NCBI GenBank assembly: GCA_000989765.1
Contig: LBOW01000002.1
Location: 6,843 to 70,842, forward strand
Length of the DNA: 64,000 nucleotides
Reading direction: 5' to 3'
Source of the DNA: Candidatus Woesebacteria bacterium GW2011_GWB1_33_22
Lineage (GTDB): Bacteria; Patescibacteriota; Microgenomatia; UBA8517
The position numbers and the translations under genes are program-made. Of the stretch, positions 3,586 through 62,470 are shown piece by piece; position 1 is the first letter of the stretch, and the number at the start of each line of letters is the position of its first letter. The notes beneath the pieces were generated by a model. It saw only the letters and a list, made by a program, of their open reading frames with translations. It did not search any database and had not been told where the DNA came from.

Positions 3586-3658
3586 TGCCGAGGTTGTGAG
3601 TTGCACACAAATCTGGCGCTCTTCAGGCGTCCGCCGTGACTACCTTGGCTACCTCGGC
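3586..3658 (-). tRNA. putative tRNA-Phe(GAA), atypical (A-C mismatch in anticodon stem, T-loop TGCAACT)
   Basis: Reverse complement: acceptor GCCGAGG/CCTCGGC, D-stem GCC/GGC, anticodon loop CTGAAGA, T-stem TTGTG/CACAA; 73 nt. Confidence 0.45.
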
Positions 3659-3685
3659 AATTTATAAAGTATATCAAATTTGTTG

Positions 3686-3759
3686 TGGATCCAGCAGGGC
3701 TCGAACCTGCGACCTTACGGATGTAAACCGTACGCTCTAACCAACTGAGCTATGGATCC
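3686..3759 (-). tRNA. tRNA-Val(TAC)
   Basis: Reverse complement GGATCCATAGCTCAGTTGGTTAGAGCGTACGGTTTACATCCGTAAGGTCGCAGGTTCGAGCCCTGCTGGATCCA; anticodon loop TTTACAT. Confidence 0.85.
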
Positions 3760-3775
3760 AAATATAATATTTTAT

Positions 3776-3832
3776 TGTAAACGTACGCTCTACCTGCCGG
3801 CAGGCAGGTCTAACCAACTGAGCTAAATGTCC
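3776..3832 (-). pseudogene. truncated tRNA-Val-like 5' half (acceptor + D-arm + anticodon 5' stem) interrupted in the D-stem by the GC-rich palindromic element
   Basis: Reverse complement GGACATTTAGCTCAGTTGGTTAGA[CCTGCCTGCCGGCAGG]TAGAGCGTACGTTTACA matches the first ~35 nt of adjacent tRNA-Val; no 3' half. Confidence 0.5.
3793..3808. repeat. GC-rich palindromic element copy (16-nt version cctgccggcaggcagg) inside tRNA-Val remnant
   Basis: Same core as the 20-bp palindrome at 13924, 18472, 26403. Confidence 0.8.
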
Positions 3833-3847
3833 ATAATAACCTATAGT

Positions 3848-3928
3848 GCTCGGGACAGGAATTGAACCTGCAAGGATTGCTCCACGGGATCCTTAATCCC
3901 GCGCGTCTACCAATTTCGCCACCCGAGC
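3848..3928 (-). tRNA. tRNA-Leu (anticodon reads AAG), type II with long variable arm
   Basis: Reverse complement GCTCGGGTGGCGAAATTGGTAGACGCGCGGGATTAAGGATCCCGTGGAGCAATCCTTGCAGGTTCAATTCCTGTCCCGAGCA; anticodon stem CGGGA/TCCCG, loop TTAAGGA. Confidence 0.7.
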
Positions 3929-3955
3929 TTAACTTTGCTATTATACTATAATCTG

Positions 3956-4038
3956 TGCAGATGGGAGGAGTTGGACCTCCAAGGATTTTACTCCACAAGC
4001 TTCTGAGGCCTGCGCGTCTACCGTTTCGCCACATCTGC
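3956..4038 (-). tRNA. tRNA-Leu(CAG), type II
   Basis: Reverse complement GCAGATGTGGCGAAACGGTAGACGCGCAGGCCTCAGAAGCTTG...GGAGGTCCAACTCCTCCCATCTGCA; anticodon loop CTCAGAA. Confidence 0.85.
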
Positions 4039-4049
4039 ATTACCTTGGT

Positions 4050-4058
4050 ATTATACCA
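4050..4058 (-). promoter_or_regulatory. extended -10 promoter (TGgTATAAT) for minus-strand tRNA operon
   Basis: Reverse complement of attatacca = TGGTATAAT located ~12 nt upstream of tRNA-Leu(CAG) 5' end. Confidence 0.4.
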
Positions 4059-4099
4059 AACTTGACTCCAAACTTTTTATATGTCATCCTGATATAGTT

Positions 4100-4720
4100 A
4101 TGCAAACAGGTATTGTTGTGGGTGAAGGAAACTCGTTTTCTTTTTGGAAAAATGTATTTTTAATGATTGTATTTTTTACAATAACACCCATAACACTAGG
4201 CATTAGTCTGTTTTCTATTTTTTCACTTCAAGGTAGCCATGAAGTTGAAATTGCAAAACCGAGTACAAATGGGGTACGTGTCTATGCCTCACTTCCCAGT
4301 GAATTTCCTACTGTAAATGGCCTAGCTATTTCTTCAGATGCAAGGCCGAAAATAATTAAAAATTATTTAGAAAAATATAATTCACCACTATTAGGAAATG
4401 AGAATTATATTGTCTCCAGATCTGATGAGGTGGGACTTGATTTTAGACTGATTACAGCTATTGCTCAGCAAGAAAGTAATTTATGTAAAATATTCCCCGA
4501 AGAAACCTACAATTGTTGGGGATGGGGGATCCACAGTAAGGGAACATTAGGTTTTGCATCATATAATGAAGCAATTGACGCTGTGACATATGGACTTAAA
4601 ACGGAATACATTGATAAAGGATTAACTACTCCTGATACTATTTGGAAAAAATATACTCCATCTTCTCCTGATGGAGCTTGGGCAAAAGGTGTAAATCAAT
4701 TCATGTCAGAAATGGAGTAA
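4100..4720 (+). CDS. putative cell-wall hydrolase (lysozyme-like / glucosaminidase-SLT-like) with N-terminal TM helix
   Basis: TM segment then ...ITAIAQQESNLCK...YNCWGWGIHS... resembling muramidase/transglycosylase cores; assignment tentative. Confidence 0.45.
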   Translation: MQTGIVVGEGNSFSFWKNVFLMIVFFTITPITLGISLFSIFSLQGSHEVEIAKPSTNGVRVYASLPSEFPTVNGLAISSDARPKIIKNYLEKYNSPLLGNENYIVSRSDEVGLDFRLITAIAQQESNLCKIFPEETYNCWGWGIHSKGTLGFASYNEAIDAVTYGLKTEYIDKGLTTPDTIWKKYTPSSPDGAWAKGVNQFMSEME

Positions 4721-29559: not shown

Positions 29560-30393
29560 ATGTTTGATAATTATATCGCTTCAAAAAAAGATTTACTGGC
29601 AGTTGAAAAAGCTTTAGAAATTCTTTGGAATCCAAAATTAGATTATATATTTAAATACAAAGAAAGAATTGAAAATATTCCTGTAACTAGTTTTGATTCA
29701 AAATATATTTATCTTTGGACAAGAAAAAATAATAAATATAACCTATCTAAGTTTACACACAATATTAAAAAAATCGATGATTCTTTACAAAAAGGATGGA
29801 GATCTGGAATTTATATTCAAGAAATTAAAAATATTCTAAAAAAAGAAACAGGGAAGGTTATAAATGGACCTTGTGGGGGATTATTAACACCGTTTACAGA
29901 AATACATAAAAAAATTAGTAAAACATCGAGTGATCCATATTTTACGAAAGAAAGTTATTACGCAACGATTTTACACGAGTTCGGTCATATTTATTGGGAT
30001 AGTTTTAAGCTTTGGTGGCCTTCAGATAAAAAAGAGAATCTTAATTTTCTAAAAACTGCGAAAGGCTATTACATGAAAGATAATATATCAACCAAAACTA
30101 ATATTATTTTCCCAAATCCAAGATTTGTCTCTGAAATATTTGCATTTTGTACAGAATACTCAGCCAGTGAAATTTTTTGGCCAGAACATATTAAATACTT
30201 TGATAAGTTTGCAATTCTTCGAATAGAAAAAATGATTTTGGAAGAAAAAAACAAAGATCTTGGTGTGCAGGATTCATCTCTTGAAGCCAATATCAATCCG
30301 CATGATTATGCTCTAGTTGCAGGAAAAACACTACATACCCAATCTCTAAAAGACTGGGTGAGTATTCTTATTAAACCTCTAAAACTCGCTTAA
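29560..30393 (+). CDS. hypothetical HExxH-motif protein (putative zinc metallopeptidase-like)
   Basis: ILHEFGHIYWD; convergent with the RiPP-like locus. Confidence 0.45.
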   Translation: MFDNYIASKKDLLAVEKALEILWNPKLDYIFKYKERIENIPVTSFDSKYIYLWTRKNNKYNLSKFTHNIKKIDDSLQKGWRSGIYIQEIKNILKKETGKVINGPCGGLLTPFTEIHKKISKTSSDPYFTKESYYATILHEFGHIYWDSFKLWWPSDKKENLNFLKTAKGYYMKDNISTKTNIIFPNPRFVSEIFAFCTEYSASEIFWPEHIKYFDKFAILRIEKMILEEKNKDLGVQDSSLEANINPHDYALVAGKTLHTQSLKDWVSILIKPLKLA

Positions 30394-30629
30394 CCAGGAT
30401 AGCAAGATGGTCTTGGAAACGGTCTTGGTGGCTCAGGTGCTTTTCCATTTGGATAACAAGGCAGTGTATCCGGACCACACGGTCCCAGTGCTGGTCGACA
30501 ATTGTTGGGATAACAATCAGTATTTGGTCTGCAAGCCGCATTCGGTGGGCAATCATTTGGCGGACAACCAGCTAATTTTATAGGTGTAACCAAAACAATT
30601 TCTGGTTCTAAGTTAAGTTCAGCTTTCAT
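30390..30629 (-). CDS. Cys/Pro-rich small peptide, candidate RiPP precursor (leader MKAELNLEPEIVLVTPIKLAG + core with 8x C-x-P)
   Basis: Core CPPNDCPPNAACRPNTDCYPNNCRPALGPCGPDTLPCYPNGKAPEPPRPFPRPSCYPG; start overlaps stop of radical-SAM/SPASM gene. Confidence 0.5.
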   Translation of the reverse strand: MKAELNLEPEIVLVTPIKLAGCPPNDCPPNAACRPNTDCYPNNCRPALGPCGPDTLPCYPNGKAPEPPRPFPRPSCYPG

Positions 30630-31530
30630 TTATTTCTTCACCCCCTTCCATTATATTAATATAAATTGGTTTATGTTCAAGATCTAATTTCCAGTATCCT
30701 TTTCCCCATTTACCTTCATATGGGTTATAAGCACATTTTGGATATGGAGCTTCAATAATATTGCCAACAACTTGATCTCTTGAAAAAACACAGGGTAGGA
30801 TGTCTCCATTATCTGTTATTGCAATTTTTCCAGATAAACAACTATTGTTATGTAAATTTTTTGATAGTGTTTCTTTATTTATGTAAAAATTTGGTGAAGT
30901 CATAATTCCGTTTATTAGTAATGATTTATTACTTGGTAGTAAATTGAGATTATCTCCTCGACCATTCTGCCTTAATACATCAAGTCTTCTGTGAGAAAAC
31001 CCCATTTCATCTACTAATTTTTGAGTTTCCTCAGCACTTTCCTCGTTTTGTTTCATTAATATAGTTTCGACCCTAGTTGGAACTCCTACTTCTTTAAGCA
31101 TTTCCAAAGCCTCCATGGTCTTTTTATGACTTCCTTTTGTCCTTGTAATTTTGTCATGAACTTCAGGATCAGTAGAATACAAAGAAACTGCGACATTAAT
31201 TTCTAAGTTTTTTATACGATTAATTCTGTCTTGTGTAAGTAGTGTTGCGTTTGTAAATATTTCGATAAATTTAAATCCCAATTCTTTTGCATATTCAGCA
31301 AGGTCTAAAACAGTTTCTCCTTTTTCTCCTCTATATAAAAAAGGTTCACCTCCTATAAATTGACATGTTTCACAACCCAAATCATGAACATTTTTTTCTT
31401 GAGCTTTCCATTGGTCAAAAGTTAGTTTAATTTTGTCTACCTGATCTGACTTTTCTTGAAATGTTGGAGGCATAAAATCCCCATAACAATGTAAGCATCT
31501 TTCATTACAATCTTTTGAAACTATTTCAAA
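30619..31530 (-). CDS. radical SAM / SPASM-domain peptide-modifying enzyme (rSAM part; CxxxCxxC lies upstream of first ATG at 31473, contiguous in frame with RRE ORF across a TGA)
   Basis: In-frame codons 31474-31530 encode FEIVSKDCNERCLHCYGDF (CxxxCxxC); GGEPFLY; C-terminal SPASM-like CLSGKIAITDNGDILPCVF. Confidence 0.75.
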   Translation of the reverse strand, partial: FEIVSKDCNERCLHCYGDFMPPTFQEKSDQVDKIKLTFDQWKAQEKNVHDLGCETCQFIGGEPFLYRGEKGETVLDLAEYAKELGFKFIEIFTNATLLTQDRINRIKNLEINVAVSLYSTDPEVHDKITRTKGSHKKTMEALEMLKEVGVPTRVETILMKQNEESAEETQKLVDEMGFSHRRLDVLRQNGRGDNLNLLPSNKSLLINGIMTSPNFYINKETLSKNLHNNSCLSGKIAITDNGDILPCVFSRDQVVGNIIEAPYPKCAYNPYEGKWGKGYWKLDLEHKPIYINIMEGGEEINES

Positions 31531-31821
31531 TCAAGCAAATTGCAAACTAGGTTTATATTCCAATTCACTAAGTATTTGTTTTTCAAGATGATTTTTATCG
31601 GTACATAATCCCATTGACACCAATTTCTTCCAGAAATTAGTGTTTTTCGATCGTCCAGTTAAAACATCCTGAGCATTTTTGTCTAATGAATAAACATTTC
31701 CAGAATTAATATCATATAATGCACATCTTGAGAAGCCTTCAACCAAGAACACCCCTGATTTTAAAGAATATTCTACAAAAGACAGAAGTTCTTTTATATC
31801 TTGTTTATATTCGGAAGACAT
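31531..31821 (-). CDS. RRE (PqqD-like RiPP recognition element) domain, same frame as downstream rSAM, terminated by in-frame TGA at 31531-31533
   Basis: FLVEGFSRCALYDINSGNVYSLDKNAQDVLTG...FWKKLVSMGL pattern typical of PqqD-like domains. Confidence 0.55.
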   Translation of the reverse strand: MSSEYKQDIKELLSFVEYSLKSGVFLVEGFSRCALYDINSGNVYSLDKNAQDVLTGRSKNTNFWKKLVSMGLCTDKNHLEKQILSELEYKPSLQFA

Positions 31822-31891: not shown

Positions 31892-32566
31892 TCAGTTAAA
31901 CGGATCTTCTTTTTGGTTTACTCCTTCTGAAGGTTTTGGTTCAATGAACTGTGGTAAATCATATTTTGATATTTCTGCCAGTATTTTTTCTTCTTCGGTT
32001 GTTAATCCGTCAACAGAAGATGTAACAGAAGGAATTTGTTTAGGAAGCTCGGTTGAATAAACACTTAATGAAACTGCAGTTTTAGATGAATCTCCAACTA
32101 AACTTATTTTTGCTTTAGTAATGTTTGCAATAGGCAAGGTCGTTGTAAACGATTCTAGAAAACTGTAGATATCAAATATTTTACCGTCTAGGTCAAAGGA
32201 AATTAGATTTGATTCTATTAAATTATCTTCCGAAACCGCATTACCTGATCTCAAATTTGAAACCAAGACATTAAACTTGAAGGCCTTAACTTTAACTTGG
32301 TTCATTGCGTAAAGTGCCGATGCTCGGTTTGGGAGAGCAACATCAACAAATGTAATATTTTCCGATATTTTAGTATCAACAGTTCTAAGTGTTGAAATTT
32401 TATTGTTTAAACCTGACTCAACTTTTTTTGCATCACTTATTTTGCTCCTAATATCATTAATTTGTTTAACACCAAAAATAGTAGTAAATAGTAGCAAACA
32501 AAAAATTACTACAAATATAGCAACCGGCTTTATTATATAATTTATTTGATTATTTAATTCTTTCAT
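31892..32566 (-). CDS. pilO: type IV pilus assembly protein PilO-like (start taken at internal MKELNN to avoid overlap)
   Basis: Single TM + coiled-coil + C-terminal periplasmic domain; follows pilM-pilN. Confidence 0.55.
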   Translation of the reverse strand: MKELNNQINYIIKPVAIFVVIFCLLLFTTIFGVKQINDIRSKISDAKKVESGLNNKISTLRTVDTKISENITFVDVALPNRASALYAMNQVKVKAFKFNVLVSNLRSGNAVSEDNLIESNLISFDLDGKIFDIYSFLESFTTTLPIANITKAKISLVGDSSKTAVSLSVYSTELPKQIPSVTSSVDGLTTEEEKILAEISKYDLPQFIEPKPSEGVNQKEDPFN

Positions 32567-32570
32567 TTTT

Positions 32571-33110
32571 TTAATTGCTAAATAATATCTCACTTGTATA
32601 CCCAAATGATGGATTAAAACCAAGCGAAGATAAAACAACCTTTTTAAAACCTGCAACTTCGACAAGTTTACTAAACATAAAGGCTAAACTGTTTGATGTC
32701 TTTGAAAATGCCGAGATTTCCATCTTGTTATGGTCTATATTTATTTCAGTTATTCCAACATCAGACGAACTTAAAAATGCGCTTGTTAAATTTTTAACTT
32801 GGCTTAAGTTTTCATAAATTGATTTACTTTTCTTAAGTTTTGAGATTTTTGATAATTTGTCCTTAGCTAAAATTAATTTCTGTTCACTTTTTTCTAAAGA
32901 AGTAACTATAGTTTTTAAGTCTGCAACAGCCGAAGTAGATTTTTTAAGTTCAAGAGAAAAATAAAAATAAGCTCCAACCGCACCGAGAAGAGAAATTACT
33001 AAAATGACTGAGAGAATTAGATTAACTTTTACAAAAAAAGCTTTGACTGCTTTGACTTTTGTTGGCACTATTAAATCACTTGGAATTAAATTTATTTTTT
33101 TGTTAATCAT
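32571..33110 (-). CDS. pilN: type IV pilus assembly protein PilN-like
   Basis: INLIP N-terminus, single TM, coiled coil. Confidence 0.65.
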   Translation of the reverse strand: MINKKINLIPSDLIVPTKVKAVKAFFVKVNLILSVILVISLLGAVGAYFYFSLELKKSTSAVADLKTIVTSLEKSEQKLILAKDKLSKISKLKKSKSIYENLSQVKNLTSAFLSSSDVGITEINIDHNKMEISAFSKTSNSLAFMFSKLVEVAGFKKVVLSSLGFNPSFGYTSEILFSN

Positions 33111-34107
33111 ACATTGCTAAACCTACCGCTGTTCCATAAATTGAAGAGTATTGCGACAAACTTTTTGCGGTCTCAGGCTCTAGATTTATCTTTGCAAAAG
33201 GATTGCCTAAAATTGTCTCAATGCCTAAAACTTCAGTCAAATAAGATATTAGGTTGGGCATTAGTGATGCCCCCCCTGAAATAACAACAGATGAGGGTGC
33301 TTCACCTTTTTCTTCACTTTGATAATAATGGATAGCTTTTTTTATTTCATCAACTACCATTCTAAAAATTGGTTCAAGAGCCAATTTGACTTTTCCTTCT
33401 AATTGTTCAGTGGATAAACCATAGGTTTTTTTATATTCCTCAGCTTGAGATTGGTTAACACCCAATGACTGAGCAACAGCCCTTGTGAATGCCTCGCCAG
33501 CAACAGGAATTGACCTTGTAAATACTACTTTGGAGTCTCTGGTTATGGCCATATCAGTACTTGTTGCACCAAGGTCTAAAAGTATTGATGTTCCTTTTTC
33601 GGGGGACATACTACGAGCCAATGCTGTAAGTTCTGTTTCGGCTGAAGATGGATTAAAACCTGCAAGTCTAATCACCTTAACATATTTTTCAACCACAATT
33701 TTTGGGGCTGCAACCAAAAGTACTGATGTTTGAGCTTCAGCCTCTCGTCGATCAAGTACTATGTGTTGTACAACCGCCTCATTAATTGGAATTGGTATAT
33801 ATTGCTCAGCTTCCCATTTAACAGCAGCAACAATTTCTTCATCAGTTAGAAGAGGAAACTTAATAATTCTTGTAAAGGCTAATTGCTCGGGGAGAGAGAT
33901 GTTAACCTCCTTTTCAGTAATACCTATTTGTTTTAGTGTTTTTTTAAGAATTTCAGCTAGAGCTACAAATTCTTTTTCATCAATCATTTTATCAGGGCTT
34001 GCTCCAGAGTAACCCACCGCACCTGAAGATTTAAGATTCCATTTTGAGGACTCTTTTGTAAGTTCAATAACTTTTATACTTTTTGATCCAATATCTATTC
34101 CAACCAT
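33103..34107 (-). CDS. pilM: type IV pilus assembly protein PilM (actin-like ATPase)
   Basis: MVGIDIGSKSIKVIEL... actin/FtsA-like fold signature; 334 aa. Confidence 0.9.
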   Translation of the reverse strand: MVGIDIGSKSIKVIELTKESSKWNLKSSGAVGYSGASPDKMIDEKEFVALAEILKKTLKQIGITEKEVNISLPEQLAFTRIIKFPLLTDEEIVAAVKWEAEQYIPIPINEAVVQHIVLDRREAEAQTSVLLVAAPKIVVEKYVKVIRLAGFNPSSAETELTALARSMSPEKGTSILLDLGATSTDMAITRDSKVVFTRSIPVAGEAFTRAVAQSLGVNQSQAEEYKKTYGLSTEQLEGKVKLALEPIFRMVVDEIKKAIHYYQSEEKGEAPSSVVISGGASLMPNLISYLTEVLGIETILGNPFAKINLEPETAKSLSQYSSIYGTAVGLAMYD

Positions 34108-35230: not shown

Positions 35231-35530
35231 ATGATTAAGATTCCAAGTAAATTGCAAGGTATTTTATGGTCAGTGCCTCTCAATAAAATTGATCTTAAAG
35301 TTCATAAATCATATTTAACTCATCAAATACTTATGTTTGGTAGTTTTGATGATATTAAATGGCTTTTTAATGTGTATCCAAATAATGATATTAAAAGTAT
35401 CTTCATAGATAAACCTCAGAAAATATACACACCAGAGGGTTTTAATTTTGTTAAAAACTTCGTTCTCAATTTAAAAGACCAAAACATACCACCCAAAAAT
35501 TATGTCAATGTTATACACTCAAAATCTTAA
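35231..35530 (+). CDS. hypothetical protein, possible cognate partner (antitoxin-like) of downstream nucleotidyltransferase
   Basis: Overlaps downstream gene by 29 nt, suggesting co-translation; no motif. Confidence 0.35.
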   Translation: MIKIPSKLQGILWSVPLNKIDLKVHKSYLTHQILMFGSFDDIKWLFNVYPNNDIKSIFIDKPQKIYTPEGFNFVKNFVLNLKDQNIPPKNYVNVIHSKS

Positions 35531-36152
35531 TAAAAATCAGTTAATAATTTATGAAAAACTAAAGGCGTTTAATAGTGATTTTGTATTGGCTGGTGGTACA
35601 TCATTAATGCTTCAAATTAACCATCGCAAAAGTTACGATTTTGATTGTTTTTCAGAGAAACCTCTAAATAAATCTTTGCTTCGAAAAGTAAAAAAGGTGT
35701 TTGGTAATAGCATTCATATATTGATAGATAACAATAGTTTGTTGCTTTTTACAACACCACAGGGGGTTAAAGTAGATTTAGTTTATTATCCATATAAACC
35801 TTTACACCAAATAATAAAAAATGCACCTATTTCCTTGTTTGGTTTTAGGGATATAGCTTCAAACAAAGCTTATACTATTGGTAGGAGAGCTACTTGGAGA
35901 GATTATGTTGATTTATTTTGTTTATTAAAAAATAATACCGTTAAAATAGAAAATATTATTAAAGATGCTAAAAAAAGATTTGGGGGGGAATTTAGTGAAA
36001 AGTTATTTTTGGAACAACTAGTCTACTTTAATGACCTTGACATAGTCCCAATTGAGTTTATTAACCAAAGCTATGAACCATCAGAGATCAAACAGACACT
36101 TGAAATGATTACTCAACAATACACAAAAACTTCTTTATTTGCTATACTTTAA
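35502..36152 (+). CDS. nucleotidyltransferase, AbiEii/DUF1814-like
   Basis: FVLAGGTSLMLQINHRKSYDFDCF (GGT/S-AL...R.S.D.D) minimal NTase fold signature. Confidence 0.55.
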   Translation: MSMLYTQNLNKNQLIIYEKLKAFNSDFVLAGGTSLMLQINHRKSYDFDCFSEKPLNKSLLRKVKKVFGNSIHILIDNNSLLLFTTPQGVKVDLVYYPYKPLHQIIKNAPISLFGFRDIASNKAYTIGRRATWRDYVDLFCLLKNNTVKIENIIKDAKKRFGGEFSEKLFLEQLVYFNDLDIVPIEFINQSYEPSEIKQTLEMITQQYTKTSLFAIL

Positions 36153-46911: not shown

Positions 46912-47403
46912 TTAATAATTTCTAGCAATTATTTCAGTTTCTGAAGTTACGCTACCTTTTTCAACTGATGTTGAAACAGTATCCTCAGCAGCTATACTAA
47001 TTCTCACAGATATTGGAGAGTTTATGTCTGTTTGAATACAACTTAAGGAACAATTTGTGACAACAATATCGGATGATGTCAATCTGCCAGAACCAGATGC
47101 AATATAATCATCGACACACGAGATAGTGCTATCCACACCTTCTAGGGCGGTGTAATAGATAATGGAAGCAGTCGAACTAACGCAATCAATACTTTGGGCA
47201 TTTCTTATTTGTCTTTCCATTACACCCATTGCATAATTAACATTTTCTCGAACCCTGACTAACGAATCGCTTTTTTTAGCACCCCTAATTGTTAAAAATA
47301 TCGATCTAGTAGTTAAAATTCCAATTACGGCAAAAATTGAAATAACAACAAGTATCTCAATTAAACTAAAACCACGCCTAACGGCGGGCGGGCCTTTTCT
47401 CAT
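46912..47403 (-). CDS. type IV pilin-like protein (prepilin-type N-terminal methylation motif GFSLIEIL)
   Basis: RRGFSLIEILVVISIFAVIGIL. Confidence 0.7.
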   Translation of the reverse strand: MRKGPPAVRRGFSLIEILVVISIFAVIGILTTRSIFLTIRGAKKSDSLVRVRENVNYAMGVMERQIRNAQSIDCVSSTASIIYYTALEGVDSTISCVDDYIASGSGRLTSSDIVVTNCSLSCIQTDINSPISVRISIAAEDTVSTSVEKGSVTSETEIIARNY

Positions 47404-47828
47404 TGTTCCCTCCTGTCTGTAAAATCAGTTGATGTTGAAACCTGATGAATTCCTTTTGAATCAGTCCAAGATGTTGTTACTACAACACTAACTATATTTC
47501 CAGAATTCGTAAATACCATTTGTCTAGTAAAAATACTATTAGGAATTATTTCAAGTTCAGCACATAATCCTTGGTTAGTAAAATTTAATTGATCTAAACA
47601 GTATGTATCAGTTGAGTTTGTTAAAAATAAATTAATATCACTTTCTTTTTGGGATCTTAGCCATTCGACTGCTTCTTGAGTATATTTTGAAGATAAAGTC
47701 TTGTTTTTTGAAAACAGCGAATTTGAAATTGAAATCGTAGAAAGAATAACTACAGCAACAACAATTAAAGTAATAATAAAAAGGGCCAGAAGTACTTCAA
47801 ACATTGATTGGCCTGAATCAGTTTTCAT
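47400..47828 (-). CDS. minor pilin-like protein (PilV/PilW-like)
   Basis: GQSMFEVLLALFIITLIVVAVVIL with Glu at +5. Confidence 0.6.
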   Translation of the reverse strand: MKTDSGQSMFEVLLALFIITLIVVAVVILSTISISNSLFSKNKTLSSKYTQEAVEWLRSQKESDINLFLTNSTDTYCLDQLNFTNQGLCAELEIIPNSIFTRQMVFTNSGNIVSVVVTTSWTDSKGIHQVSTSTDFTDRREQ

Positions 47829-48286
47829 TCTATATCTCCTCCAATGCCAATTGTGACTTGCCCCGTTGTCCCAGCTAAATCATGGGTTAATGTCAAAGTA
47901 AGTGAAGAAATTAGATCAGTCCCTTGTCCTAATACTTTAAATTTAATAAAACTTGGTAAACTTGAAATTGTTATATTTTTGGATGATAAATCAACAGTCT
48001 TAATGATAATGTCACTAGGTTCACAACTGGCTATTAATTCATAAACATAAGAATCAGAAAGATTAAATAAATAACCTGAAAGAGTTACGCAACCTTCTGG
48101 TTTTTGACCAGTCAAGGCAAATTGTTGGGCTGATCTTAAATCAGCCTTAACTGCTTTTAAAACTCCTGTTAGTGTTTGACGTCTGGAGAACTCTCTAAAA
48201 CTAACAAACCCAATTGTAAAAACAATTATTATAATTGTTATAGCTATTAAAAGTTCAATTAATGTATATGCCGAATTTCGCTTCAT
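47825..48286 (-). CDS. type IV pilin-like protein (Ala at -1 instead of Gly: SAYTLIELL)
   Basis: MKRNSAYTLIELLIAITIIIIVF. Confidence 0.65.
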   Translation of the reverse strand: MKRNSAYTLIELLIAITIIIIVFTIGFVSFREFSRRQTLTGVLKAVKADLRSAQQFALTGQKPEGCVTLSGYLFNLSDSYVYELIASCEPSDIIIKTVDLSSKNITISSLPSFIKFKVLGQGTDLISSLTLTLTHDLAGTTGQVTIGIGGDIE

Positions 48287-48729
48287 GGATTAGTAACTTT
48301 ATAATTACACGCTAAACTACCACAAGATGAACCGCAATTTATTGTTGTACCACCTTGTTCAAGAGAAGCACATAAATTATATTCACTCCCTGAAACTTGA
48401 TAAACATAATTTTTTCCAGCAACAGGATCGGCAGGGATTAATGAAATATATGTATTTGCAACCGCGCATGATGTCGGAGTACCACTTCCAATTAAAGAAT
48501 TACCAAAGGTAATTGAACCAGGATATGTATTACAATCTGCTTTGTAAAGCTCAAGGCCTGACCGTATAAGTTCCAAATCAGATTTTCTTCTAGCATCTCT
48601 TGCCGATTCTCTGGCACCTGACAAACCAAAAATTGAAATGGCTATTAAAATGCCTATTATTGAAATAACTACTAATAATTCAATTAAAGTAAAAGCCTTG
48701 TATATTTTTTTCATTGTAATGTTGGACAA
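48283..48729 (-). CDS. type IV pilin paralogue (likely start at internal MKKIYKAFTLIELL)
   Basis: KAFTLIELLVVISIIGILIAI + shared SARESARDARRKSDL motif. Confidence 0.8.
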   Translation of the reverse strand: MSNITMKKIYKAFTLIELLVVISIIGILIAISIFGLSGARESARDARRKSDLELIRSGLELYKADCNTYPGSITFGNSLIGSGTPTSCAVANTYISLIPADPVAGKNYVYQVSGSEYNLCASLEQGGTTINCGSSCGSLACNYKVTNP

Positions 48730-49151
48730 ACTCCGGCACTACTACTTGGACTTGTTGTTGTTTTTCCATTTTTGCCGTTACTACAAACCACCCAATAAGT
48801 TGTTGTTGATTCATTTTCTAAAGTTGCCCAAAGAACATACCCTAAACCATTGGCGTCAGTAATGTAGTAATAAACAAGAGTTGGGTCTTTAGGATCTAGG
48901 GAACAATTAGTTAAACTTAAATCAGTACATAATGTTGAAATACTTACCGCAATTTGATGTATCGGATATAGACCCTCATTTTTACTTGCATATTCTTCAA
49001 CAGAAGTTTGATATTGTTTCATATCCGATTTTCTGTTCACATCACGTGCTTGTCTTTGAGCTCCAGTAAAAGAAACTAAAGCTAATGCAGACAATATGCC
49101 AATAAGAGAAATGACAATTAACATTTCGATTAATGTAAAGGCTTTTCTCAT
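48711..49151 (-). CDS. type IV pilin paralogue
   Basis: MRKAFTLIEMLIVISLIGIL + AQRQARDVNRKSDM motif. Confidence 0.8.
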   Translation of the reverse strand: MRKAFTLIEMLIVISLIGILSALALVSFTGAQRQARDVNRKSDMKQYQTSVEEYASKNEGLYPIHQIAVSISTLCTDLSLTNCSLDPKDPTLVYYYITDANGLGYVLWATLENESTTTYWVVCSNGKNGKTTTSPSSSAGVCPTLQ

Positions 49152-49582
49152 GGTTTTACTTCATATTTATATCCACTAGCACAACCTGCTTCAACAATAC
49201 CTTTATCATCACTAGGATTTTCAAGACAAGCATAAAGAGTATATAAATCAGTATCAACAGCATCTCTTGCATATACATAATCTTGTGTGGGGGATAAAGG
49301 ATCAGCAGGTAAGATGTTCATGTAAGTAACACTCCCGTCTGTCCAGGGAGAACCCCAGACAGGCAAATCTCCCACTAATGGATAAATACTATTATCATTA
49401 TAATAAAGCCTTAAGGCAGTTTGAATATTTCGCAGATCCGATTTTCTTTCTGCATCCCTTGCTCTTTCTCTTGCTGAATTTAAATTTGCCAAAACTAGTG
49501 TTGCTAAAATTCCAATTAATGAAATCACAACTAATAGTTCAACAAGTGTAAATGCCTTTTGTGTTTTCATCGTACTTATCAC
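49148..49582 (-). CDS. type IV pilin paralogue
   Basis: QKAFTLVELLVVISLIGILA + SARERARDAERKSDL motif. Confidence 0.8.
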   Translation of the reverse strand: MISTMKTQKAFTLVELLVVISLIGILATLVLANLNSARERARDAERKSDLRNIQTALRLYYNDNSIYPLVGDLPVWGSPWTDGSVTYMNILPADPLSPTQDYVYARDAVDTDLYTLYACLENPSDDKGIVEAGCASGYKYEVKP

Positions 49583-49596
49583 TTTATATCATATCA

Positions 49597-50058
49597 CTAT
49601 TCACTAGCGTTCGTGTTTGCACTAGTAACTGAAAAGTTGCAATTACCTGTCCCTCCACAACCACTGTTAGTAATTGTTAAATCCAAATTTCTGTCTTGGC
49701 TATTTTCAAGTTTTGCAAAAAGTTGATATTTTTGGTTTAGAGAACCTGCTACTACTTGATATACATAATTAAAATTTGAAGAAGGATCCTTTGGCAAAAT
49801 TTTGAAATAAATGGTTCCTTTGCTATCAGAAAACTCATCTGTTCCAGAAATTAAGTCAATTTCATCTACGTTTGGATATTTATGGTAATCTGAATAAAAA
49901 AGTTCTAAAGCATGGGAAATTTGTTTTAAGTCAGATTTCCTCTGGGCATCTCTTCCTCTCATTTGGGCAGTTCTAAAACTGCCTACTGCAAGAGATGCTA
50001 AAACTCCAATAATTGCCATCACAACCAAAAGTTCAACTAAGGTGAATGCTTTTTTCAT
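49597..50058 (-). CDS. type IV pilin paralogue (start trimmed to MKKAFTLVELL)
   Basis: KKAFTLVELLVVMAIIGVLA + AQMRGRDAQRKSDL motif. Confidence 0.8.
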   Translation of the reverse strand: MKKAFTLVELLVVMAIIGVLASLAVGSFRTAQMRGRDAQRKSDLKQISHALELFYSDYHKYPNVDEIDLISGTDEFSDSKGTIYFKILPKDPSSNFNYVYQVVAGSLNQKYQLFAKLENSQDRNLDLTITNSGCGGTGNCNFSVTSANTNASE

Positions 50059-50059
50059 A

Positions 50060-50554
50060 TTAACTGCCCCACCTTCCATAATTACATATAAAGTCGCCAC
50101 AATGCAAGTTTTTCTGTATTATTGTTAGGCTGTATTCATCTTCATTTTTACCTTCGAGAGAAACATATATTTCATATTTATCTCCATCTGAAATATATAA
50201 GTATTTTCGTCCTTTTCTATAACTAGGGTCATTATTAATTACATTAATATTTTCAAATTTAGAAACACCCCAATCACAGGCTACAGCATTTAATGCATGG
50301 CTAGTTTCATTATCAACAACTGGATTTTCAATAAAACATCCAATAATTCTCCCGTCAATGGTTGATTTAGGAAATTCTTTATATTTTTGCAAAAAAGTAT
50401 CAACTTCTTTTTGCATAGCGGACATATCATTTTTACGAGTAGTATCTCTACCTTTACGAAGTGAAGTTTTAATATTAATTCCTGTTACTAAAATTAAAAA
50501 CGTAAATATTATTAATAGATATTTAATCTCTGTTTTATTAAAAAGATGTAACAT
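50060..50554 (-). CDS. degenerate pilin-like paralogue lacking canonical G-F-T-L-I-E prepilin motif
   Basis: Retains family motif LRKGRDTTRKNDM...TFLQKY but N-terminus is IKYLLIIFTFLILVTGI without cleavage/methylation signature. Confidence 0.45.
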   Translation of the reverse strand: MLHLFNKTEIKYLLIIFTFLILVTGINIKTSLRKGRDTTRKNDMSAMQKEVDTFLQKYKEFPKSTIDGRIIGCFIENPVVDNETSHALNAVACDWGVSKFENINVINNDPSYRKGRKYLYISDGDKYEIYVSLEGKNEDEYSLTIIQKNLHCGDFICNYGRWGS

Positions 50555-61348: not shown

Positions 61349-62470
61349 ATGGACTCAATTAGTTATCATAAAAAATATAAAGGGAAAATTGGAACTGAAT
61401 TAAAATCTCCAATAAATAATAGATCTGACTTATCTCTTGCATACACTCCAGGTGTCGCAGAGGTTAGTAAACTTTTGGCCCTTGATCCTAAAATGGCAAG
61501 CACTTTAAGCTTAAAATCAAATACTATCGCGGTACTTTCAGACGGTTCTGCAGTTTTGGGACTTGGAAATATTGGTGCCTATGGAGCAATTCCTGTAATG
61601 GAAGGTAAGGCTGCACTCTTTAAAAAGTTTGCCGGAGTAGATGCATTTCCAATTTGTGTAAATACCCAAGACAATGAAGAAATAATTAAATTAGCCAAAA
61701 ATATCGCTCCTGTATTTGGTGGCATAAACTTAGAAGATATTGAAGCTCCAAGGTGTTTTGAGATAGAAAGAAGACTAATTAAAGAACTTGATATCCCAGT
61801 TATGCATGATGATCAGCATGGAACAGCAGTAGTTGTTCTGACAGCTTTATTAAATTCACTCAAGGTTGTAGATAAAGACAAATCTGTAAAAATTGTTATT
61901 AACGGCGCAGGTGCAGCAGGGACTGCAGTTTGTGATTTACTACTAGAATATGGATTTAAAAATATAGTTATTTGTGATTCCCAGGGAGCAATTAGTAAAC
62001 ATAGAAAAGATTTAAATACTGAGAAAAAAAGACTTGTTAAAATTACTAATATAAATAATGAGGTAGGGGACATCCATCAAATAATTAAAAATAAAGATGT
62101 TTTTATTGGAGTTTCTAAGGGCAATTTAATTGATAAAAACGACATTAAAAACATGAGCAAAGATGCCGTCGTTTTTGCCATGGCAAATCCAACTCCTGAA
62201 ATTATGCCAGATGAAGCAAAATTAGGTGGAGCAAAAGTTATTGCAACAGGAAGGTCAGACTTTAACAATCAAATAAATAATTGTTTAGTCTTTCCTGGAA
62301 TTTTTAGAGGGGCGTTAGATCATAAAGTAAAAAGAATAACTAACAAAATGTTAATTCAAGCTGCTATAAATCTTTCTAAATTAGTTAAAAAACCAACAGT
62401 TGAAAAAATTATTCCCAGCCCATTTGAAAAAGGAGTTGTAAAAGCAGTCTCTTCAGCAATAAAAATGTGA
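61349..62470 (+). CDS. NAD(P)-dependent malic enzyme (short form)
   Basis: LSLAYTPGVAEV, GTAVVVLTALLNSLK, Rossmann GAGAAG. Confidence 0.9.
   Translation: MDSISYHKKYKGKIGTELKSPINNRSDLSLAYTPGVAEVSKLLALDPKMASTLSLKSNTIAVLSDGSAVLGLGNIGAYGAIPVMEGKAALFKKFAGVDAFPICVNTQDNEEIIKLAKNIAPVFGGINLEDIEAPRCFEIERRLIKELDIPVMHDDQHGTAVVVLTALLNSLKVVDKDKSVKIVINGAGAAGTAVCDLLLEYGFKNIVICDSQGAISKHRKDLNTEKKRLVKITNINNEVGDIHQIIKNKDVFIGVSKGNLIDKNDIKNMSKDAVVFAMANPTPEIMPDEAKLGGAKVIATGRSDFNNQINNCLVFPGIFRGALDHKVKRITNKMLIQAAINLSKLVKKPTVEKIIPSPFEKGVVKAVSSAIKM

Follow-up and report, generated by a model that had tools for sequence, protein, structure and literature searches.

A recent in-frame stop at an invariant tryptophan codon has probably inactivated a peptide maturase gene in a nearly clonal groundwater Woesebacteria population

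Does an in-frame stop codon beside an essential-looking cysteine motif mark a recoded gene, an error in the data, or a gene that has been lost? This question is raised by a locus in a 64,000-nucleotide stretch of Candidatus Woesebacteria bacterium GW2011_GWB1_33_22 (contig LBOW01000002.1, positions 6,843 to 70,842; hereafter the window, whose numbering is used throughout). On the minus strand of the window, positions 31821-30619 make up one continuous frame of 401 codons with one internal stop. The first open reading frame (ORF; 31531..31821) runs for 96 codons and ends at a TGA (31531-31533) that is followed by T. The next 19 codons (FEIVSKDCNERCLHCYGDF; 31530-31474) contain no ATG, GTG or TTG, and they hold a CxxxCxxC motif, CNERCLHC (31509-31486), which lies outside every ORF with a canonical start. 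The first ATG after the stop (31473-31471) opens a 284-aa ORF (31473..30619; KKP45216.1), which starts at an internal methionine, encodes the remainder of a radical S-adenosylmethionine (SAM) barrel and a C-terminal tail, and has no cluster-binding cysteines of its own. If codon 97 were translated, peptides such as PSLQFAWFEIVSK would bridge the TGA site. A reading made from the nucleotide sequence alone (the sequence-only reading) had described this arrangement, accurately in both coordinates and content, and had offered three explanations, namely stop-codon read-through or recoding, a sequencing or assembly error, and a very recent inactivating mutation. The TGG ancestry of the codon, the presence of TGA throughout the population, and the lack of decay elsewhere in the gene select the third. 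A very recent nonsense mutation has, in all likelihood, inactivated or nearly inactivated a peptide maturase in one clonal lineage, leaving a young pseudogene or a severe hypomorph.

The locus is one gene for a peptide maturase with an RRE-like domain, a radical SAM core and a SPASM domain (454 codons if intact), because profile matches and full-length relatives run straight over the stop. On the joined, stop-bridged product, Pfam Radical_SAM (PF04055) matched residues 101-269 (E 9e-24, 84.9 bits against a cut-off of 29.5), in a product that includes the 19 start-less codons; this score and the CxxxCxxC motif place it in the radical SAM superfamily. NCBIfam matches to the joined product also span the stop, starting at residue 89 for StsB, at residue 91 for AlbA, and at residue 37 for CcpM. 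All of these scores are far under the curated cut-offs (77 bits against 625 for StsB NF045574, 56 against 850 for AlbA NF012164, 45 against 500 for CcpM TIGR04068, and 44 against 340 for PapB NF047865), and the maturase is outside all curated NCBIfam families. The 96-aa ORF alone had no Pfam or NCBIfam match. A search of 5.8 billion protein clusters returned 533 relatives from Woesebacteria, Roizmanbacteria, Amesbacteria, and other Patescibacteria, the best of which are 450-482 aa long, cover the whole query, and have the SPASM domain. Full-length relatives align over the stop with E values down to 5e-227 and are single fused RRE-rSAM-SPASM proteins of approximately 460-480 aa, to whose N-termini the 96-codon fragment aligns; this fragment comprises the RRE-like N-terminal domain and the beginning of the first strand of the radical SAM barrel. 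The two GenBank entries KKP45217.1 and KKP45216.1 should be annotated as two fragments of one disrupted gene. Some relatives are themselves unusual. In P0027, the C-terminus of the maturase continues into a peptide-like Cys/Pro-rich tail (…CNPNCLPACNPNTLPKICGPT…PPKPPGP), the SPASM region of P0064 is scrambled over one stretch, and additional stops occur past the motif in L011; fusions or frameshifts in other lineages may account for these cases.

The RRE (PqqD-like) is a winged helix-turn-helix of a three-stranded beta-sheet and three helices that binds the leader peptide, and SPASM (PF13186) is a C-terminal domain in which CxxCxxxxxCxxxC and flanking cysteines bind auxiliary Fe-S clusters. 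For the intact orthologue P0002, AlphaFold predicted a structure (mean predicted local distance difference test score, pLDDT, 86; predicted template modelling score 0.86) with three parts, namely an N-terminal beta-sheet with helices (residues 9-69), a barrel, and a C-terminal domain. The N-terminal part comprises strands at residues 9-46 followed by helices at residues 48-69, with pLDDT of approximately 95. The best PDB matches of the model were SuiB, SkfB, anSME, CteB, and TigE, and the RRE-bearing SuiB, CteB, and TigE align with it over their full length (approximately 467-483 columns) at 13-17% identity, so that the RRE-rSAM-SPASM reading is supported at the level of the predicted fold. 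For the joined window product no Pfam SPASM match was obtained, the 54 codons that encode the SPASM cysteines being missing as assembled. PF13186 was found on the otherwise identical L048 and on the L001 allele, which means that the family has SPASM and that the window sequence, as assembled, is without it.

The model also locates the break. Trp97, eight codons ahead of the first cluster cysteine, lies inside beta-strand 1 (residues 95-101) of the radical SAM barrel rather than in a linker, and a cut there would therefore be unable to yield two natural domains. The statement that the TGA separates the RRE from the radical SAM core is thus roughly right, but the codon falls within the first strand of that core. 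This bears on a two-protein system, in which a discrete RRE would be followed by a radical SAM protein started at ATA 31527-31525 or by re-initiation after the TGA. Discrete pairs of this kind exist, PqqD and PqqE being an RRE protein and an rSAM-SPASM enzyme, and the two ORFs of the window mimic such a pair; furthermore, the ATA, which is the sole table-11 rare start among the 19 codons, stands 6 nt past the TGA. PqqE, however, is translated from a start of its own and retains the whole of beta-1, whereas at this locus beta-1 itself is interrupted and no canonical start lies between the TGA and the cysteines. No Shine-Dalgarno-like sequence was found ahead of the ATA, and initiation at the ATA would also truncate beta-1. 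The arrangement is moreover confined to one clonal lineage, while the sister species has TGG, and the sequence-only reading's own alternative, that orthologues would uniformly be two separate genes, failed, since all relatives are fused. A split system is accordingly very improbable.

We then considered whether the TGA exists at all. The identical 96-aa ORF was present on 32 contigs in 60 index blocks (NCBI, JGI, ENA, and Logan), and the TGA was read directly in the DNA of seven contigs (L001 and L048-L053) produced by different assemblers. These assemblies comprised NCBI metagenome-assembled genomes (MAGs), ENA re-assemblies (one with a k141-named contig), and a Logan run assembly. A metagenome pattern scan with the third base left free recovered no TGG allele of the window lineage, only a sister species at 83% identity. 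Among approximately 15 billion proteins, the homologue search brought up no uninterrupted protein of the window lineage, and exact look-ups of four reconstructed read-through products had no match. Over approximately 11.7 kb of flanks there were no differences between assemblies, indicating an almost clonal population. The TGA is real and fixed in this nearly clonal groundwater Woesebacteria population, that is, GW2011_GWB1_33_22 and its siblings. A sequencing or assembly error over a true G would involve only a single-base change, and a local assembly defect may be present 780 bp downstream. Nevertheless, independent assemblies by different pipelines carry the TGA and an identical 96-aa ORF, and, within the same 32 nt, a sister species was assembled with TGG, which speaks against a context-specific error. 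Error was rejected on these grounds, and we give it a negligible probability. One variant was observed close to the stop: on an ENA contig of 1847 bp (P0130), the 96-aa fragment has Leu for Phe95 (…LQLA for …LQFA), two codons ahead of the TGA. The family alignment A3 has Phe at position 95 without exception, and P0130 represents a further nonsynonymous polymorphism in an otherwise clonal locus.

The ancestral state of codon 97 is well defined. Trp was invariant at column 97 in both a 15-sequence alignment (A1) and a 49-sequence alignment (A3), with all 14 aligned relatives in the former having Trp. As gene calling could hide a split gene, orthologous loci were also read as DNA. Among the genome loci of other species in which the motif could be located, 30 of 30 encoded W, in the form ...F[AVI]W[FL]E..., out to Streptomyces. 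Two contigs of a sister species from the Hainich aquifer in Germany (L004 and L005), approximately 83% identical overall, carry TGG and read CAATTTGCTTGGTTTGAAATAGTTTCAAAAGA, the same 32 nt as the window save TGG for TGA. Given the invariant Trp and the TGG in an identical 32-nt context, the lesion is a single G-to-A transition, from TGG to TGA. It is a disabling change at a conserved site, absent from orthologues, with no canonical start before the cluster cysteines.

To place the mutation in time, the window lineage (W) was compared with two intact sisters, S1 (L002/P0001) and S2 (L005), using as outgroup O1, a co-resident Woesebacteria genome (CP011214; L003/L006) with 31% GC that is intact at W97. 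Identity to O1 was 76.2% for W, 76.0% for S1, and 76.2% for S2, and lineage-specific changes numbered 9, 8, and 7, respectively. The ratio of nonsynonymous to synonymous substitution rates (dN/dS) was 0.08-0.10 between W and the sisters and 0.15 between the intact sisters. Judging from these substitutions, the gene was under normal constraint for essentially all its history, and the absence of a rate excess together with the low dN/dS points to a recent origin of the stop. A long-standing pseudogene is ruled out by these two measures, the relative-rate test and dN/dS. As for other signs of relaxed constraint, deletion alleles exist, but at a boundary prone to assembly problems (see below).

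Could the TGA be decoded as an amino acid throughout this genome, or as selenocysteine here? The genome has 33% GC and belongs to the candidate phyla radiation (CPR), in which some other lineages reassign UGA. However, TGA ends 15 of the 60 long ORFs in the window, among them tyrS and a series of pilin genes that overlap at ATGA, and the sequence-only reading was right to reject genetic codes 4 and 25. A scan of the whole 64 kb for long same-frame segments split by TGA identified the maturase as the only split gene; the same-frame TGA pair at 62468 is a malic-enzyme gene with a normal end. For selenocysteine, the relatives have Trp rather than Cys or Sec at this position, and no SECIS-like hairpin was found, the 91 nt around and after the TGA (31545-31455) folding at -13.3 kcal/mol with a z-score of +0.56, no better than shuffled sequences. 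The eight tRNAs of the window include neither a tRNA-Sec nor a suppressor tRNA. Table 4 or 25 reassignment and selenocysteine were both rejected, and together they retain next to no probability. A tRNA-Trp gene was likewise missing among the eight tRNAs; UGA-reading variants of this tRNA have a UCA anticodon or a 4-bp anticodon stem (PMC13092985).

A subtler form of decoding is read-through, leaky or programmed, in which the ordinary, near-cognate tRNA-Trp would usefully decode the UGA and yield the wild-type 454-aa maturase as a low-expression variant. Of the three stops, UGA is the leakiest, and tRNA-Trp misreads it naturally, as in the A1 protein of phage Q-beta and in the low-level decoding of UGA as Trp in both B. 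subtilis and E. coli. Low-level misreading almost certainly occurs at this codon too, and the question is whether it is enough to matter. Natural misreading of UGA restores Trp and no other residue, and Trp is what the stop replaces, so that, as in the known cases, insertion of Trp would give a meaningful, indeed wild-type, product. In favor of read-through, too, the commonest allele is otherwise intact, as is the peptide gene, and no rate acceleration was detected. On the other hand, in known programmed read-through the stop is conserved and its context usually favourable, whereas here no orthologue shares the stop, which occurs in a single clonal lineage and is followed by U, with no downstream structure and no other in-frame TGA gene in the window. 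In bacteria, a U at the +4 position lowers read-through, the leaky base there being C (PMC5289835). In a clonal population, intact sequence is no evidence either way, and the SPASM cysteines are missing as well from the window copy if its assembly is correct. The read-through or recoding option of the sequence-only reading gained no positive support, and we regard read-through of this kind, although it is the chief rival, as unlikely. That the UGA at Trp97 is tolerated or maintained because tRNA-Trp reads it often enough for wild-type maturase is, in our estimation, somewhat less likely still. If true, it would represent a natural low-dosage allele of an enzyme of ribosomally synthesized and post-translationally modified peptide (RiPP) biosynthesis and, in a CPR genome of 33% GC, could be a snapshot of the ambiguous decoding that precedes UGA-to-Trp codon capture.

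We therefore favor the recent nonsense mutation. A G-to-A transition turned the invariant Trp97 TGG into TGA, which is fixed in the near-clonal population. Under this explanation, ribosomes would terminate at the TGA to release a 96-residue N-terminal fragment, while any product from the internal ATG would be without the cysteines for [4Fe-4S]/SAM binding. The enzyme would be lost or reduced to trace levels, and the pseudogene would be too young for trustworthy further decay. We infer efficient termination at this TGA, and with it loss of function, from the observations above. Several points weigh against this explanation. The commonest allele is intact save for the TGA and keeps every family-invariant residue, and the precursor peptide gene is intact; near-clonality means that the intactness of the remaining gene says nothing about selection either way. 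Misreading of UGA by tRNA-Trp would restore exactly the wild-type protein, and a low level of active enzyme is physically plausible. Moreover, every deletion that could serve as proof of further decay borders a stretch shared identically with O1, where assemblies break, and some or all of them could be artefacts.

Other disruptive alleles, all of them deletions, occur in the same population and count towards the favored explanation: two are frameshifts (89 and 115 bp) and two are in frame (162 and 6 bp). They were located against the full allele on contig L048, which has 338 codons after the internal Met; a 338-aa downstream part is also the commonest allele, found on at least 13 contigs. In the window, 162 bp (L048 3572-3733) are deleted in frame, relative to otherwise 100% identical contigs, with the junction at 30750..30751 (minus strand), removing 54 codons of the SPASM CxxCxxxxxCxxxC region and thereby its cysteines. 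GWA1_33_33 (L051) lacks 89 bp (L048 3645-3733), and GWA2_33_20 (L052) and a Logan run contig (L053) lack 115 bp (L048 3590-3704) with CAAAT microhomology. The 6-bp deletion of L001 lies elsewhere in the gene: six bases encoding Arg-Ile (31221..31226, minus strand), present in the window and most relatives, are missing from the allele L001/P0004/P0128. Outside these lesions the compared alleles are 100% identical, except that L001 also differs at a Met/Leu site (30651, minus strand; L048 3833), where the window has Met and both L001 and O1 have Leu. At a first glance, such a series would suggest a decaying pseudogene.

The last site is the first mismatch past a 128-bp stretch (L048 3705-3832) over which W and O1 are perfectly identical. 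In a nucleotide-identity profile, W was approximately 95% identical to O1 over L048 approximately 3615-4480 (window approximately 30750-30000), with identity of just approximately 71-75% directly upstream of this segment; the true sister species differ strongly in the peptide core. The segment is a recombination tract. It covers the peptide gene together with the SPASM-encoding end of the maturase gene and the 3' part of a neighboring gene with a HEFGH motif, and part of the maturase-peptide cluster has recently been exchanged between two co-resident CPR species. The deletion boundaries (3704|3705 and 3733|3734) coincide exactly with the edge of the shared stretch, as do the point at which contig L053 ends (3734), the truncated P0124 and P0125, and the Met/Leu site at 3833; several other assemblies (e.g., L049 and L050) end contigs in or beside the maturase gene. 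Within one study, each of three sibling MAGs has its own deletion (162, 89, or 115 bp) in the same 162-bp segment, of which other assemblies of the same population have the full sequence. Together with the position of the boundaries, this suggests mis-assembly for at least some of the three. We lean towards a local assembly artefact for the 162-bp deletion of the window, whereas we take the 115-bp deletion to be probably genuine, its junction having been recovered in an independent Logan run assembly as well. The 162-bp deletion had been considered a second, independent proof of gene death, and it was downgraded because its boundaries coincide with the edge of the recombination tract. A diversity-generating retroelement was also considered behind the 162-bp segment and rejected, as the window contains no second copy and the segment is the conserved SPASM core. 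For work with MAGs, the locus carries a caution: a stretch common to two co-occurring species coincides with contig breaks and three apparent deletions, and such a second lesion should not be taken at face value.

Seen beside known systems, the stop at the conserved Trp is an event of an ordinary kind. Like ordinary nonsense-mutation pseudogenes, the locus has a single transition at a conserved codon in one lineage, intact relatives, no recoding signals, and deletion alleles in the population; it differs in that the gene is very young, shows no excess substitutions, and has additional lesions that are not secure. The encoded enzyme resembles SuiB (5V1Q), CteB (5WGG), SkfB (6EFN), TigE (8VPO), and the StsB, AlbA, and CcpM families in its N-terminal leader-recognition-like domain, CxxxCxxC barrel, and SPASM cysteines, and, as with SuiB/CteB/SkfB/TigE-type maturases, a small Cys-rich peptide gene lies directly downstream. 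It differs from these systems in its low identity and low NCBIfam scores, in a peptide that belongs to no curated family, and in a window copy that is stop-interrupted and without SPASM cysteines. The result is mainly negative, in that a striking in-frame stop near an essential-looking motif is most simply a plain recent nonsense mutation and no new recoding event. Nevertheless, a maturase-peptide pair that is uncurated and widespread in Microgenomates emerges from the intact relatives and may merit its own study.

The presumed precursor peptide is a 79-aa Cys/Pro-rich ORF (30390..30629, minus strand), whose ATG lies 11 nt upstream of the maturase stop, so that the two genes overlap; it is identical on 26 contigs. 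Equivalent peptides were found downstream of the radical SAM gene in most orthologous loci (L002 and L005-L032), with a leader of the EPxIxLVT type followed by a core in which C-x-P-[D/N] units recur (CPPND, CRPNT, CSPD, CGPD, and others), and none had a Pfam or NCBIfam match. From this composition and placement, the 79-aa ORF resembles a RiPP substrate, and its family, which is uncurated, would be widespread among Microgenomates and related CPR. A literature search for this family in Patescibacteria returned nothing specific. The HEFGH (HExxH) motif mentioned above is carried by a 277-aa ORF (29560..30393, plus strand) that adjoins the maturase-peptide pair in both species and has no Pfam match; it may be the leader peptidase of the cluster. 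The gene order around it differs between the species, CP011214 having an S16/KH/rnc/nusB/L32 block on the other side. A promoter and terminator scan of the locus gave counts that did not differ from those of shuffled sequences.

Beyond the cluster, genes resembling PilM, PilN, and PilO (31892-34107) adjoin the maturase. Seven tandem genes of 142-167 aa (46912-50100, minus strand), mostly with 4-nt ATGA overlaps, form a type IV pilin-like array, six of them having a prepilin N-methylation motif and three having domains like that of type II secretion system protein G (T2SS-G). An overlapping DUF6922 and AbiEii-like pair (35231-36152, plus strand; 99 and 216 aa), with a Fic-domain gene beyond, was recognized from the Pfam marks that its identical counterparts in L001 carry; it resembles a toxin-antitoxin or abortive-infection module.

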